The position numbers were made by a program, and so were the translations under genes. This document shows, one piece after another, positions 2,885 through 45,794 of a stretch of DNA of 64,000 bases. Each line of letters begins with the position of its first letter. Position 1 is the first letter of the stretch. The stretch spans positions 9,176,001-9,240,000 of the forward strand of contig OX597830.1 of assembly GCA_951406725.2 (NCBI GenBank), read 5' to 3'. The notes beneath the pieces were generated by a model. It was not told where the DNA came from and ran no database searches. It was given only the letters and a program-made list of their open reading frames with translations. Source of the stretch: Octopus vulgaris (lineage: Eukaryota).

Positions 2885-3574
2885 TCGGTGTCCCTTTGCA
2901 GAAGGTGGCTGGCCTTATATCATTGATTCACTCATTGAACCCGTTTTATGACCCCGATGTTTACTGTTAAACCACTAGATTGGGAGCCTATGGACGTCAC
3001 TGTATCTTCAGACATTTTATCTACAGACGTTGCAAAATGCAATTTCATTCCTTTACGATGGATAGTTGGTTAACAGAACCGTGAAACTAACAGTCGCTAT
3101 GTGTTACAGACACCCCCCCACACACACACATGAATATATGCACAGTCGGCTCAGGTATGTGTGTGAGTGTGCATGTGTGTGTTTTAATAATAACAGTGGC
3201 GAACAAATTTCAAATTTTTGTCTATTGAATTAGATTTGACATTTAGTCACAGGTAATTTTTGTTGCACTGAGCACGAATTTTGAACTCGGTTTTGCCCTA
3301 TCAAGTTCTGATTTTGTCTGTGAACTGTGTCAGGCGCCTGTTTGTCGGCGTTTGGAAAAGCATTAATACGAACGACTTACGTTTATGAATATTATTAAAA
3401 ATAATATTCATGTACAAGTTTATTTTTACCTGTAAAATAGAATGTGCTTGAAGAAAGCAGGTTTTTCTACGTTTTGAAGCTAAAATTTCCGCAACTTTTT
3501 TTCTTTTTGGCAAGCTTAGATTCCTTACAAGATCATTCAAGTCGGCCTGGTTAAACTTTTGTGTATTATTAGAT

Positions 3575-4099
3575 CAACACCAGTACGTAACTGGTACTTA
3601 ATTTATCGACTCCTCAAAGATGAAAGGCAAAGTTGACCTCGGCGGAATTTGAACTCGGAACATAAAGACTGACGAAATACCTATTTCTTTACTACCCACA
3701 AGGGGCTAAACACAGAGAGGACAAACAAGGACAGACAAAGGGATTAAGTTGATTACATCGACCCCAGTGCCTAACTGGTACTTATTTAATCGACCCCAAA
3801 AGGATGAAAGGCAAAGTGGACCTCGGCGGAATTTGAACTCAGAACGTAGCGGCAGACGAGATACCCATTTCTTTACTACCCATAAAGGGCTACACACAGA
3901 GGGGACAAACAAGGACAGACAAACAGATTAAGTCGATTATATCGATCGCAGTGCATAACTGGTACTTAAATAATCGACCCCGAAAGGATGAAAGGCAAAG
4001 TCGACATCGGCGGAATTTGAACTCGCAACGTAACGGCAGACGAAATAGCGCTACGCATTTCGCCCGGCGTGCTTAACGATTCTGCCAGCTCGCCGCCTT
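3575..4099 (-). mobile_element. tRNA-derived Nin/Deu-domain SINE with tandem internal units
   Basis: Minus-strand head ggcggcgagctggcagaatcgttaagcacg, B-box gagttcaaat, repeated gcctttcatcctttcggggtcgat..aagtacc core; ~3 units. Confidence 0.85.
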
Positions 4100-10101: not shown

Positions 10102-11394
10102 CGAGGGGCGTTCAATAAGTAATGCCCCTGACCCACTTCCCATAGCAGTAGAGTAACGAAACTTGGCACAGTTATTAGTCTTTTTCTACATAGGAACCAC
10201 CCAGAGTTACGCATTTCTCCCATTGTTTGATGCAGCTCTGGAGACCGTTTTTGTAGAAGACCCCAGCTTGGTCCTCCAACCTGAACGCGACTTCAGAAAT
10301 CAAGGCTGCATCATCTGGGAAACGCTTTCCTTTCAAAAACAACTTCATGGCTGGGAAGAGGTGAAAATCAGAGGGTGCAAGGTCAGGAAAGTAGGGGGGA
10401 TGGGGGAGGAGTTCATAGCCATACGCCTGTGCTTCTGATCTGGCGACAAGCGAGTTGTGGACCGGAGCGTTGTCCTGCAGGAGGAGGATGCCTTTGCTGA
10501 TCTTGCCCATCCTCTTGATTTTGATAACTTCTCTTAATTTCCTCAAAAGTGAAGCATAATAGGCTCCTGTAATTGTGGTGCCCTTTGCCAGGAAATCTGT
10601 CTTCACTACTCCGTCCTGGTCCCAGAAGACTGTGAGCATGACCTTGCCAGCGGAGGGCTGCACCCTTGCCTTTTTTGGAGGAGGTGAGTCACGGTGCTTC
10701 CACTGCATTGACTGGGCTTTGGTCTCTGGATCATCGTGATGGACCCAGGTTTCATCCTGTGTAATCAGTCTTTTGAAAAATTTTGACTCATCTTCTTGGC
10801 ACATCTCCAAATTCACCCTCGAGCAGTCGACGCGTTCTTGCTTCTGGAAAGGCGTGAGCAACCTGGGAATCCATCTGGCAGACACCTTTTGCATATGCAA
10901 ATGGTCATGAATGATAGTTTCCACAGACCCGGTACTAATCTTGACCTCATGGGCTATTTGGCGAATAGTTATGCGTCGATCTTCCAAAATGGCAGCCTCA
11001 ACTTGACGGACAGATGCCTCATCAATGGCAGAAGGGGGACGACCAGATCTGGGAGCTGTTTCCACAGAGTTCCGACCATGTTTGAATTTACGATGCCAGG
11101 GTTTTACAAGGTCATATGATGGGGCATCATCACCATAAGTTACTTTCATTTCATCAAAAGTCTCCCGTGGTGTGCGTCCTTTCAAATACAAAAACCGGAT
11201 CACTGCTCGACACTCAACAGGCTCCATTTCACACTTGACTCGGTTCAAACACCTGTAAATCAGAAACCACAATTAATTCAGAGCTGTAATTTGCTACTTA
11301 CCCTATAGTGATATAAATAATTGCACATGCAAAATTTCAGCTAGATCAAACAACTGCAAGTGGGTCAGAGGCATTACTTATTGAACGTCCCTCG
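10102..11394 (-). mobile_element. Complete mariner (DD34D) transposon, 1293 bp
   Basis: 37-bp TIRs cgaggggcgttcaataagtaatgcccctgacccactt / aagtgggtcagaggcattacttattgaacgtccctcg (2 mismatches); TA on both sides. Confidence 0.97.
10175..11227 (-). CDS. Mariner transposase, uninterrupted ~350 aa (irritans-like)
   Basis: HTH N-terminus, WIPRLL, ITQDETW, LLQDNAPVH and YFPDLAPSDF with exactly 34 residues between D2 and D3. ATG at 11227 (MEPVECRAV) preferred over the upstream alternative start. Confidence 0.95.
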   Translation of the reverse strand: MEPVECRAVIRFLYLKGRTPRETFDEMKVTYGDDAPSYDLVKPWHRKFKHGRNSVETAPRSGRPPSAIDEASVRQVEAAILEDRRITIRQIAHEVKISTGSVETIIHDHLHMQKVSARWIPRLLTPFQKQERVDCSRVNLEMCQEDESKFFKRLITQDETWVHHDDPETKAQSMQWKHRDSPPPKKARVQPSAGKVMLTVFWDQDGVVKTDFLAKGTTITGAYYASLLRKLREVIKIKRMGKISKGILLLQDNAPVHNSLVARSEAQAYGYELLPHPPYFPDLAPSDFHLFPAMKLFLKGKRFPDDAALISEVAFRLEDQAGVFYKNGLQSCIKQWEKCVTLGGSYVEKD

Positions 11395-20884: not shown

Positions 20885-21468
20885 AAGGTGGCGAGCTGGC
20901 AGAATCGTTAGCACGCCGGGCGAAATGCGTAGCCGTATTTCGTCTGCCGTTACGTTCTGAGTTCAAATTACGCCGAGGTCGACTTTGCCTTTCATCATTT
21001 CGGGGTCGATTAAATAAGTACCAGTTACGCACTGGGGTCGATATAATCGACTTAATCCGTTTCTCTGTCCTTGTTTGTCCCCTCGGTGTTTAGCCCCTTG
21101 TGGGTAGTAAAGAAATAGGTATTTCGTCTGCCGTTACGTTCTGAGTTCAAATTCCACCGAGGTCGACTTTGCCTTTCATCCTTTCGGGGTCGATAAAATA
21201 AGTACCAGTTACGCACTGGGGTCGATATAATCGACTTAATCCGTTTGTCTGTCCTTATTTGTCCCCTCGGTGTTTAGCCCCTTGTGGGTAGTAAAGAAAT
21301 AGGTATTTCGTCTGCCGTTACGTCCTTAGTTCAAATTCTGCCGAGGATGACATTGCTTTTAATCCTTTCGGGGTCGCTAAATTAAGTACCAGTTGCGTAT
21401 TTGGGTCGATCTGATCGACTGGCTGTCTCCCCGTAAATTTCGGGCCTTGTGCCTAGAATAGAAAAGAA
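20885..21468 (+). mobile_element. Nin/Deu-domain SINE with 184-bp tandem units
   Basis: gtatttcgtctgccgttacg starts at 20935, 21119 and 21303. Confidence 0.9.
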
Positions 21469-25219: not shown

Positions 25220-25789
25220 TTTCTTTTCTACTCTAGGCACAAGAACAGAAATTTTTGGGGAGGGGGGCAGTCGATTAGATTGACCCCAGTACGCAACCAG
25301 TACTTAATTTATCGACCCCGAAAGGATGAAGGCAAAGTCGGGCTCGACGGAATTTGAACTCAGAACGTAAAGACAGACGGAATACCCATTTCTTTACTAC
25401 CCACAAGGGGCTAAACACAGTGGGGACAAACAAGGACAGACAAACGGATTAAGTCGATCAGATCGACCCCAGGGCATAACTGGTACTTAATTTATCGACC
25501 CCGAAAGGATGAGAGGTAAAGTCGACCTCGGCGGAATTTGAACTCAGAACGTAAAGACAGACAAAATACCTATTTCTTTACTACCCACAGTGGGGACAAA
25601 CAAGGACATATAAACGGATTAAGTCGATCAGAGCGACCCCAGTGCGTAAATGGTACTTAATTTATCGACCCCGAAAGGATGAGAGGCAAAGTCGACCTCG
25701 GCGGAATTTGAACTCAGAACGTATCGGCAGACGAAGTACGGCTACGCATTTCGCCCGGCGTGCTAACGATTCTGCCAGCTCGCCGCCTT
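25220..25789 (-). mobile_element. Nin/Deu-domain SINE with tandem units
   Basis: Same architecture as 20885-21468. Confidence 0.9.
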
Positions 25790-33517: not shown

Positions 33518-34717
33518 CAGGGGTTGGACAAAATAATGGAAACACCTAGCATCATAGCATCATAATTTTGGAGTATCTATAAAACCGTCAAAAGCTTGTT
33601 TATTTTTATGATTTTGATTTATTATTACTGTTGCTTAATATGCTTTACTAAAATTGCTGTATCTTTTCAGATATCAGAAAAAGCTAATTAAAATTCATTT
33701 AAATGATAGATCTATCACACTTTCAAAGAAATCAAATTGTTGGTGCTCATATGGCAGGCGCAACCAAACAAAAACAGCCGAAACGTTTGGTGTATCAAGA
33801 AGCATTGTCTCAGTAGTGACAGCTTTTGAGAAAGAGGTAAAAACCTCCTCGTCGAAACAAAACCCCGGAAGAAAACCAAAACTTTCAGATAGTCTCTTTC
33901 AGTTGGTCTCTTACGCCAATTGTTAGAAAGGATAAAAAAAGTAGAGCTCCCAATATTACTGGCAGAGCTTAATGACCACCTCGAGAACCCAGTTTCCACA
34001 AAAACTGTTCGCCGGTAGTTGCACGAAGCCGGATTTCACGGGAGGGCTGCAATCAGAAACTACTACTTTCAAAAACAAACATTGCAAAGCGTTTAGAGTG
34101 GAGTAAAAACTGACAGAATTGGTCCGAGAAAATAACATTCTTCCACCAGGTGGTGGAAAAATGTTATTTTCTCGAACGAGTCATGCTTTACCTTATTTCC
34201 GAACTCCGGCCGAATATACATGCATTTGACTCAGACTACTTTCTACCAACTGTTAACCATAGAGGTGGATCTGTGATGATCGGGGGGAGGGGCTGTATCT
34301 TGGAAATGCGCCGGCCCAATGGTTTCCTGTTTTTGGAGGGAAACGCAATCTTTTTGGATGATAATGCATCAATTCACACAACTAAAGTTGTTACTGAATG
34401 GCACGAGGAACATTCTAGTGAAGTCGAACATCTTATCTGGCCACCACAGTCCCCAGATCTCAATAGTATTGAACATTTATGGTGCATTATAGGAAAACAA
34501 GTAAGGAGTCGATATCCTCCACCATTATCACTACAAGAACTGGAGACTGTTTTAGCTGAAGAATGGAGAAAAATTCCTTTGGAAACAATTCAAACTTTGT
34601 ATGAGTCCATACCTCATAAAATTCAAGCTGTAATTAATGCCAAAGGCGGTACTACCTCATATTAAAATAAATTTGTTTGAAATTTTAAGGTGTTTCCATT
34701 ATTTTGTTCAACTCCTG
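33518..34717 (+). pseudogene. Tc1-like (DD34E) transposon, decayed with internal deletion
   Basis: TA-caggggttggacaaaataatggaaacacct ... aggtgtttccattattttgttcaactcctg-TA; FLDDNASIH...WPPQSPDLNSIEHLW. Confidence 0.92.
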
Positions 34718-39825: not shown

Positions 39826-40034
39826 CTCTTTTACTCTTTTACTTGTTTCAGTCATTTGACTGCAGCCATGCTGGAGCACCGCCTTTAGTCGAGCAAATCG
39901 ACCACGGGACTTATTCTTTGTAAGCCCAGTACTTATTCTATCGGTCTCTTTTGCCGAACCGCTAAGTTACGGGGACGTAAACACACCAGCATCGGTTGTC
40001 AAGCAATGCCAGGGGGACAAACACAGACACACAA

Positions 40035-40083
<49 letters not shown>

Positions 40084-40248
40084 TACGTTAGGCTTCTTTC
40101 AGTTTCCGTCTACCAAATCCACTCACAAGGCATTGGTCGGCCCGGGGCTATAGCAGAAGACACTTGCCCAAGATGCCACGCAGTGGGACTGAACCCGGAA
40201 CCACGTGGTTGGTTAGCAAGCTACTTACCACACAGCCACTCCTGCGCC
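39826..40248 (-). mobile_element. SINE family A, full length
   Basis: Complete head to tail. Confidence 0.92.
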
Positions 40249-40346
40249 TATAATGTTCATGTAACATTTAAAAAATGAGAACTCAATACGTGAAAAGAGT
40301 TAAATAATTCTATATTGCTTTTGATATAACATAAAGAGAAAGGGTA

Positions 40347-41372: not shown

Positions 41373-41523
41373 GTATATATATATATATGTAGATATATAT
41401 ATATATATATATATTTATATATTTAATCAATATAGGGTGGCAAAAAAATTTTGTAGAATTCTTTTGCCACCAGCGGCCTAGTGGGAAAAAATTAAATAGT
41501 CATAAACCATTTTTAAGTTCAAC

Positions 41524-42064
41524 ATCACAATCAAGGAACGGCCATAATAGGCCATTCACCCACTAGAAATAACAGCCAAAAGCTTCAACCGCAAAATAAC
41601 ATCAATTCCGTAAACCAGGAGAAAATTAAAAAAACATTTACCCTGTAATTTCTTGATTTAATTTAATCAGGTTAGTTTACCATTAAACAGTAGACGAAAC
41701 GGTGCATCGGCGGCTTATATTTATTTGCTGCCGATAAATTGGGCGCGAGTGCGATGATTTGAAAATTTTAGGTCAGATATTGCCGAGGCAGGGACGGGAA
41801 TGCCTCGTGAAAAATATCTGTTCCGACTTGGCTATTTCTTACTGATGAATCTAAGGGCCTATGGTAGATTGGCTTGATTTAATTTAATCAGGTTAGTTTA
41901 CCATTAAACAGTAGACGAAACGGTGCATCGTATAAGAAATTACAGGGTAAATGTTTTTTTAATTTTCTCCTGGTTTACGGAATTGATGTTATTTTGCGGT
42001 TGAAGCTTTTGGCTGTTATTTCTAGTGGGTGAATGGCCTATTATGGCCGTTCCTTGATTGTGAT
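41524..42064. mobile_element. Penelope-like terminal structure: 131-bp inverted repeat plus 58-bp direct repeat around a hammerhead
   Basis: 41524-41654 is the reverse complement of 41934-42064; 41652-41709 equals 41873-41930. Confidence 0.8.
41834..41940 (+). ncRNA. Type I hammerhead ribozyme with long stem II insertion
   Basis: atttctta-CTGATGA-atcta..[19-bp G-U-rich hairpin]..tagac-GAAA-cggtgcatcg-TA-taagaaat. Confidence 0.7.
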
Positions 42065-42071
42065 ATATATT

Positions 42072-42155
<84 letters not shown>

Positions 42156-42469: not shown

Positions 42470-42965
42470 AGGCTGGCAACAGAGACAAGTGGAGAAAACA
42501 AACATACGAAGGATGTCACTCATTCCGTCTAAAGCCAATAAGCTGAGCAACAACCAAAAGAGCTGACCGCAAGGGAGATAAAGTAGAATTAGCGGTTTCT
42601 CATTTAGTTTGCCATGAATGAGACTGAAGATGCTTGTGAAATGTAGGATACCAAAGATAGTTCAGGAGTCATACAGACAACCATCCAGCAGATTATATTT
42701 AATTCGTTATTGCAGACCCGCTTACCTGTAATGTATGTGGCAAAGTTTGCCAGATCCGGACTCATGTGAGATTTGAAAACTCAGTAATCTTCCACCTGAG
42801 AGATCTGACTGTCAAGCCGAAAACATGGATTGGGCTGGCAGCAAACATTGTGAGTCTCTCGCCGGCTTCATGTGTCATTATCGATATCACGTTCGTAAGA
42901 AGGATCCGTCATAAGCCAACCATCAGCGATAATCATGGCCGGCTAACGAGTCGACAGCCATGGTG
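42470..42965 (+). pseudogene. RTE-like LINE 3' remnant with C-terminal C2H2 fingers and (ATGT)n tail
   Basis: RDKWRKQTYEGC; [10 protein letters not shown]; [15 protein letters not shown]; tail runs into (ATGT)n. Confidence 0.6.
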
Positions 42966-45304: not shown

Positions 45305-45372
<68 letters not shown>

Positions 45373-45538
45373 TACGACGGACTTCTTTCAGTTTCCGTCT
45401 ACCAAACCCACTCACAAGGCTTTGGTCAGCCCGAGGCTATAATAGAAGACACTTGCCCAAGGTGCCACGCAGTGGGACTGAACCCGGAACCATGTGGTTG
45501 GTAGACAAGCTACTTACTACACAGCCACTCCTGCGCCT
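45104..45538 (-). mobile_element. SINE family A
   Basis: Near full length. Confidence 0.9.
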
Positions 45539-45794
45539 ATATATATATATATATAGTACAAAGTAGGATAGGGGTTATGGGTGTAACCCACTATGGGATA
45601 GCATTTGATTTCAATAATTTATATTATGACTTTTATAATTTGTATTCTTATCTTATATGTATTGAATTATAAGATATATATGTATGCTATTAAGGTTCTC
45701 ATTTTGTTAAATGAATAAATAATTCAACATTCTAATATCCGAAAGTTGATGAACAAACTAAATTTGTTTCTCCATTTTCTTAGTTGTATTATAT

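Follow-up and report, generated by a model that had tools for sequence, protein, structure and literature searches.

The window, i.e., the whole 64,000-nucleotide stretch of Octopus vulgaris DNA analysed here, harbors at 41419-42064 an insertion bounded by a 10-bp target duplication in a (TA)n tract. Its parts follow in the order: target duplication, an inverted segment from +237 to +2, a sense segment 432-489, a sense segment leading from 265 through the predicted cut of a hammerhead motif to +132, and the second target duplication. The positions refer to a ruler, one natural monomer taken from locus L017, where +1 is the first base after the predicted cut. The features of the locus (41409-42074) are listed below.

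41409..41418, + strand: left copy of the 10-bp target-site duplication, ATATATTTAT, in the (TA)n tract (from the sequence; the same locus is L002)
41419..41654, - strand: inverted arm, monomer +237 (outer end) to +2 (inner end), the latter 1 nt from the predicted cut (L002, 1210-1445)
41419..41523, - strand: one-sided "tail" of 105 nt, +133..+237, beyond the first-pass coordinates
41524..41654, - strand: perfect 131-bp inverted repeat, left arm, +132..+2 (sequence comparison)
41652..41654, + strand: CTT microhomology at which the +2 end of the inverted arm is joined to monomer position 432; the junction occurs also at one other locus
41652..41709, + strand: 58-bp piece, monomer 432-489, the 3' half of the hammerhead; likely the leftover of one further lap
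41706..41709, + strand: ATCG microhomology at which monomer 486-489 is joined to 265-268, with 266 nt skipped
41706..42064, + strand: sense arm, from monomer 265 via 491 and across the cut to +132 (outer end)
41834..41940, + strand: type I hammerhead motif, stem I ATTTCTTA/TAAGAAAT, predicted cut after 41932
Hammerhead parts, + strand: CTGATGA (41842-41848), long stem II with a 19-bp hairpin (41861-41904), GAAA (41917-41920)
Hammerhead parts, + strand: A10.1-C11.1 mismatch (41849/41916), self-complementary stem III
41934..42064, + strand: perfect inverted repeat, right arm, +2..+132 (sequence comparison)
42065..42074, + strand: right copy of the 10-bp target-site duplication

The first-pass annotation described here an inverted repeat with mismatch-free 131-bp arms beginning at a predicted ribozyme cut. 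The arms (41524-41654 and 41934-42064, 131 nt each, 279 nt apart) are indeed 100% complementary and pair with each other by BLAST inside the window at E 1e-64; a transcript through both, as proposed in the first pass, might fold into long dsRNA. The left limit had to be moved: the inverted copy runs 105 bp beyond 41524, to 41419, and the repeat is the overlap of two arms, limited on the outside by the +132 end and on the inside by the +2 end of the left arm. The repeat begins at the predicted cut (GTA at 41930-41932) only in the left inverted copy, which breaks at +2, an assignment ambiguous over +2..+5 because of the CTT overlap; the plus-strand copy is continuous over 41706-42064 and crosses the ribozyme without a break. 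The direct duplicate of the hammerhead 3' half joined to the left arm was confirmed (41652-41709 equals 41873-41930 over 58 nt, with the 3-nt CTT overlap). The three stems noted in the spacer are present in the sequence (41708-41714/41727-41733, 41774-41781/41813-41820, and 41784-41790/41801-41807), but they constitute the normal body of the family monomer rather than a peculiarity of the locus, which contains one complete hammerhead motif and one half.

The two internal junctions differ in their distribution. The +2/432 junction with its CTT overlap recurs once, at locus L149, in the same polarity; since the two copies differ by 10 mismatches over 286 aligned bases, the L149 junction is likely independent, and it lacks the extra 58-bp piece. 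The 489/265 junction occurs a single time in the genome, and since ATCG is found at exactly those two monomer positions (486-489 and 265-268), microhomology suffices to account for it. The proposal that the 58-bp piece records a switch set by cleavage was thus not upheld; the piece is better explained as the remnant of an ATCG microhomology deletion, the simplest history being that the right arm was formerly one lap longer and then lost 266 nt. The +2 end of the left arm likely marks the 5' end of a cleaved RNA, since first-lap inner ends pile up beyond the cut throughout the family (see below). The locus is one ordinary family copy; its value is that of an entry point to a family-wide test.

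The surroundings comprise repeats of other kinds. An interspersed repeat pair (40018-40252 and 45307-45541, 88% identical) recurs beside many of the fetched family loci. Copies of a 170-184-bp tandem repeat family are situated at 3568-4047, 20935-21420, and 25416-25723; such repeats also adjoin retrozyme arms at L011 and L029. Chimeras of the retrozyme with the 184-bp tandem family were considered at L011 and L029; at L011, a +237 stub lies beyond the tandem family, so a later insertion is more likely there. The window also contains a 364-aa open frame with mariner-type transposase domains (10178-11272, - strand; PF01359, E 1.5e-23; PF17906), a DDE_3 transposase fragment (34114-34662, + strand; E 1e-11), and a short open stretch containing Cys and without a Pfam match (42703-42960, + strand).

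In the 2.8-Gb genome of O. vulgaris, the sequence is present in many 99-100% identical copies spaced by about 491 bp. A family 22-mer has 3,016 exact matches, and since the first 100 of them sit in 37 loci, about 1,100 loci can be inferred, i.e., a family of roughly 1,000 loci; exact matches to the end junctions number 434 for the +132 end and 903 for the +237 end. In 77 insertions, 152 full laps of about 491 nt each (485-495) were delimited. The doubled monomer has stops in all six frames, hence it is non-coding; no open frame with reverse transcriptase (RT) and GIY-YIG domains was found in the locus or the monomer, which is not an autonomous Penelope-like element. Judging by sequence, the element is a tandem, non-coding, 491-bp non-LTR retrozyme with a hammerhead motif, which inserts like a Penelope element.

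The arms of one insertion show zero differences at positions 35-120 in 81 of 113 cases (this identity could reflect gene conversion), at a median divergence of 3.6% between insertions. Two laps of the same arm differ by 1.5 substitutions; the difference is 2.2 between the arms of an insertion, 3.3 from the nearest other insertion, and 20.6 from a random one. In a comparison bearing on circular vs. linear multimeric templates, private alleles were shared by all laps 11 times and by some laps 8 times, and were confined to one lap 66 times. Diverged, older-looking relatives of the monomer reside beside young arms at L215, L244, and L245. In sequencing runs guessed to be RNA, possibly DNA, 41-49% of the sampled words were present.

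The elements of a type I hammerhead core (CUGANGA, GAAA, and UH) occur in order at the locus. Over the 77 insertions, 10 of 11 core columns are invariant, N7 takes four states and H17 is A or C only; the GAAA and UH columns fall within the fuzzy motif used for cutting out the monomers, and core invariance alone is a weak sign, because 66% of all monomer columns are likewise invariant. Pair 1.1-2.1 of stem I is A-U in 75 insertions and G-C in 2, and pair 412-471 of stem II is A-U in 66, G-C in 8, and A-A in 3. The compensatory pairs (2 in stem I, 8 in stem II) represent few independent covariation events, the copies being related. The G10.1-C11.1 pair is highly conserved in type I hammerheads, yet it is not strictly defining. 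It is absent here: the locus has A-C, and the family shows A-U (38), A-C (25), G-U (12), and U-U (2 of 77). In the predicted single-copy fold, stem I and the 19-bp stem II hairpin form and the core is buried (z -4.75). The 12-mer of stem III is predicted to be fully self-pairing (-17.5 kcal/mol), and self-complementary stems III are described for dimer-type hammerhead motifs in the excerpts of PMC4209133. The Rfam hammerhead models gave no match to the motif at E 10, and the long stem II insertion may defeat these models; over the whole window and the locus, Rfam returned no hammerhead, only microsatellite-driven miRNA matches. Overall, the motif shows signs of selection as a ribozyme with a predicted cleavage.

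For the family-wide analysis, 249 loci were fetched; 32 represented an insertion already sampled and were dropped, so that 217 loci with 221 clusters remained; one cluster was excluded because it ran past its stretch. The 75 clusters retrieved with ribozyme-spanning queries and the 6 retrieved with the cut-site pattern were kept apart. The remaining, unbiased set comprises 139 insertions from loci found via the +132 end (56), the +237 end (44), and the 22-mer (37), all from the first three contigs; after leaving out 8 arms with other outer ends, 234 arms were available.

Head-to-head arms were found in 103 of the 139 unbiased insertions, and their outer ends are combined as follows: 95 pair +132 with +237, one has +132 twice (L205, G000:C3:182.40 Mb, the sole such insertion in the set), none has +237 twice, and seven have one odd end. 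The partner of a +132 end was +237 in 46 of 49 cases, and that of a +237 end was +132 in 25 of 28. Each end also occurs alone, since single-arm insertions number 14 and 21 for the two ends; a stub of the opposite end accompanies 5 of 36 single-arm insertions. Informative target duplications (8-20 bp) were seen at 9 of 161 inverted insertions, most flanks being pure (TA)n and uninformative. Likely, +132 and +237 are two fixed priming sites used from both ends of one break and not set by the ribozyme, and we infer paired priming from both DNA ends. LINE-1 twin priming likewise yields two cDNAs from two target strands and a head-to-head junction with microhomology; there, the first primer sits on the poly(A) end and the second site is variable, whereas both octopus sites are internal and fixed.

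The inner ends behave differently. The interval +1..+30 contains 52 of them vs. 13.1 expected (unbiased set), which makes it the best 30-nt window among 491 sliding windows, one starting at the cut. The excess is confined to the first lap (46 per 4476 nt, 0.0103 per nt); later laps have 6 per 2472 nt (0.0024) against a background of about 0.002, and the laps differ at p 9e-5. Counting one arm per insertion, 26 vs. 4.6 expected (132 arms) and 20 vs. 3.8 (237 arms) were obtained in the first lap, and 2 vs. 2.5 and 4 vs. 2.1, respectively, in later laps. Since the excess holds in both arm classes, the peak follows template position and not arm length. Across the cut, positions 482-491 have 1 end vs. 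4.7 expected and the wider interval 462-491 has 14 vs. 13.6. Stronger hairpins elsewhere lack a first-lap peak (0.0009-0.0028 per nt vs. 0.0103), and printing the junctions indicated that the +1..+30 ends are real rather than alignment breaks within the T run.

At the same time, the cut is frequently read through: of the 172 arms reaching +30, 46 stop within +1..+30 and 126 cross it, and the longest arm measures 6,975 nt. Stops exactly at +1..+3 number 4 vs. 1.4 expected in the sample (p 0.053). Genome-wide, the cut-site stop pattern has 9 matches at 7 loci, one of them internal, vs. 3 at a control position (one inside an array, two not fetched). Among the 116 arms from ribozyme-spanning queries, a set biased to read-through, 14 ends vs. 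7.25 expected fall in the interval. The first-pass idea that cleavage sets the template switches is thereby not upheld as a general rule, since the outer limits are fixed at +132 and +237, most arms cross the cut, and exact stops are few. What is upheld is that family breakpoints are non-random relative to the ribozyme: the inner ends are enriched about four-fold in the 30 nt downstream of the cut, in the first lap only. About a quarter of the copied strands that get as far as the predicted cut stop just short of it; these data suggest that ribozyme-cut RNA sometimes serves as the template.

Both arms end within +1..+30 in 15 of 95 paired inversions, and one arm only in 10. At L142 (G000:C3:83.97 Mb) and L145 (G000:C9:48.20 Mb), the arms meet exactly at the predicted cut as perfect palindromes. 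Arms also co-terminate away from the cut, in 22 of 66 insertions vs. 4.0 in shuffled data and often at short palindromes (e.g., L161, L175, L180, L187, and L196), which a shared eroded RNA end or a symmetric palindrome deletion would explain. Same-end junctions are slightly older (0.0071 vs. 0.0032, p 0.046), a weak difference. Two candidate signals were discarded: a hot spot that the first 30 loci seemed to show at 415-447 was no longer present in the unbiased set (11 vs. 13.9), and equal-length arms, considered as a mark of simultaneous synthesis, were as frequent as in shuffled data (6 of 95 vs. 6.1).

Taken as a whole, a mechanism in which a hammerhead retrozyme is inserted by a Penelope-type enzyme through paired priming, with cleaved as well as uncleaved RNA as templates, seems fairly probable to us. 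The reverse transcriptase/endonuclease would cut both strands of a (TA)n tract, and both DNA ends would be primed, probably on one RNA, at the fixed sites +132 and +237. Each DNA 3' end would then prime a cDNA that extends in the direction of the RNA 5' end; microhomologies of 2-6 nt would serve to join the two cDNAs. A ribozyme-cleaved linear RNA would give arms stopping at +1..+30, and an uncleaved or circular one would give read-through arms of up to 14 laps. At the 41419-42064 locus, the +237 arm likely ran off the cleaved 5' end at +2, and the +132 arm would have crossed the cut twice and ended at 432, where it would have been joined by CTT; either a jump guided by ATCG or a deletion at a later time would have removed positions 490 to +264, and the 58-bp piece would be what remained. 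With one arm stopping at the cut and its partner reading across, the locus needs two RNA molecules or a cut in mid-synthesis, and end trimming must be assumed, because the excess is spread across 30 nt. Several observations stand against the mechanism: a single-RNA pool predicts both arms stopping together, while this locus has one stop, and the co-termination away from the cut is unexplained by cleavage. The same holds for the frequent read-through with few exact stops, for the A-C mismatch, the buried core, and the missing Rfam match of the hammerhead in this copy, for the lack of a coding element with shared sequence among 50 GIY-YIG loci, and for the dispensability of cleavage in the anole element in vitro (PMC11167929).

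Several other explanations were weighed against paired priming on cleaved and uncleaved RNA. Both internal junctions of the locus could be switches fixed by cleavage, one cDNA ending at +2 and the other jumping onto the cleaved 3' end (489-491), thereby making the 58-bp duplicate. Both lie within 2 nt of the cut, ATCG at 486-489 would lie 2 nt from the cleaved 3' end, and the first-lap peak makes the presence of cleaved RNA likely. However, the uniqueness of the 489/265 junction, the restriction of ATCG to its two positions, and the absence of the extra piece from L149 render this account quite unlikely; besides, the skipped stretch would have paired with the left arm over only about 60 bp, and no further internal jump landing at the cut was seen by eye in the segment maps. 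Alternatively, the stop zone could stem from RNA structure, which would act only as long as the template is not yet covered by cDNA, i.e., on the first lap, or from microhomology in A/T runs, and not from a cleaved end. The ends are spread and peak near +10-12 and +22-25, where A and T runs lie; this, the start of stem I at +1, and the passage of most arms would suit such an explanation. Pure microhomology is excluded, however, because the identical sequence has no such excess once later laps are counted; besides, neither the 19-bp hairpin nor three further stems have a first-lap peak, and two palindromes are centred exactly on the cut. We consider it unlikely.

A fold-back origin, in which snap-back at a palindrome of the junction, perhaps with an antisense template, makes the second arm a copy of the first (a hypothesis put forward in PMC3846280), would fit the usual identity of the arms and the 41 of 95 paired inversions ending within 25 nt of the same position (14.3 in shuffled data), often at short palindromes. 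Still, the +132 arm extends more than 25 nt further 5' in 43 of the 95 and the +237 arm in 18, so neither can be the copy of the other; moreover, each end occurs alone, and the right arm at the 41419-42064 locus contains sequence missing from the left. This origin is accordingly very improbable. As to an assembly artefact, long microsatellites flank the locus and, among the contigs listed from 4 public runs, none spans the stretch, whose 28 bins around the junctions are all covered by public DNA contigs in each of the 4 runs. An artefact is scarcely credible in view of the informative 10-bp target duplication with both ends canonical, the inverted arrangement of 103 of 139 sampled insertions, and the recurrence of the +2/432 junction at a diverged locus (10 mismatches over 286 bases). 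The exception to this support is the 489/265 junction, which is seen at this locus alone.

Known metazoan non-LTR retrozymes (Cervera and de la Pena 2020, PMC7229834; Li, Clavereau and Pollet 2026, bioRxiv 10.64898/2026.07.22.740005) are likewise described as tandem arrays of non-coding monomers that all contain a type I hammerhead, and as flanked by target duplications of >4 bp, as in the octopus family; their mobilisation by Penelope-like elements via circular RNA has been proposed in both. The octopus monomer (491 nt) exceeds the 170-400 nt given in PMC7229834, falls within the 51-972 bp of the bioRxiv report, and has a long stem II extension unlike the retrozymes in the excerpts of both papers. 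These excerpts describe no head-to-head arms, paired fixed ends, or cut-proximal breakpoints, and the word "inverted" occurs 0 times in PMC7229834. Judging from these comparisons, the octopus family, with its putative ribozyme, is a further member of the metazoan non-LTR retrozymes.

Penelope-like insertions (Craig 2021, PMC8557442; Arkhipova 2013, PMC3846280) share with it partial tandems, an inverted 5'-truncated copy, a one-sided tail, junction palindromes, (TA)n targets, and duplications of 8-10 bp, in line with the first-pass reading of the locus as a young Penelope-type reverse-transcription footprint. The octopus tail is longer (105 nt vs. 30-40 nt), is nearly a rule (95 of 103), and belongs to a family without an open frame; in the excerpts of the same papers, tail and palindromes are ascribed to endonuclease resolution or self-priming. 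The in vitro work on the Anolis Poseidon element PAc (Frangieh 2024, PMC11167929) documents cutting and extension of both strands, matching the octopus footprint, together with two internal sites, both downstream of the ribozyme, at which copying starts and which define the tail, an AT-rich target, and a predicted protein dimer. According to its excerpts, no strand difference in the PAc start site was seen, with within-insertion pairing unreported, whereas the octopus sites are paired; cleavage was unnecessary in vitro, and the cut was not a starting point of any RNA-seq reads, while the octopus stop zone abuts it. A literature search for paired priming or breakpoints at the cut, covering sources outside subscription journals and partly in excerpt, gave, besides reviews and unrelated papers, only those cited, and a lap-resolved stop zone at the cut was not found in print within it.

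The Penelope-type nature of the mobilising enzyme is deduced from the insertion footprint. Among 50 GIY-YIG loci (from 150 scored of 6,136 candidates, mostly one family), no coding element sharing sequence with the retrozyme was found; a single 53-bp match, 98% identical, in L252 looks like a separate retrozyme fragment. A young family at L280-L297 (e.g., L282:2342-4687) has intact 781-aa RT + GIY-YIG open frames, (TA)n flanks, tandem repeats in the 3' region, and a Cys motif before the nuclease, the last being Neptune-like by the description excerpted from PMC8557442. Its elements are a candidate driver; they have no sequence in common with the retrozyme and no hammerhead by motif scan.

Read jointly, the octopus genome may hold an in vivo record both of hammerhead cleavage and of the Penelope insertion reaction. 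A dimeric enzyme would prime both ends of a single break, using two sites on one RNA that cannot stand in for each other; short palindromes closing at the cut would arise from cleaved linear RNA, and rolling multi-lap arms from circular RNA. This reading is advanced tentatively, and we would stop a little short of calling it probable. If true, the product of the ribozyme would be a real template, and one mechanism would account for three features of Penelope-like elements, namely the inverted pLTR, the tail on one side, and the palindromes at the junctions. The family bears on the role of the hammerhead in these elements and on the origin of inverted, tailed insertions: being young and comprising about 1,000 insertions, it yields countable predictions, i.e., paired start sites and a first-lap stop zone that would depend on the ribozyme.
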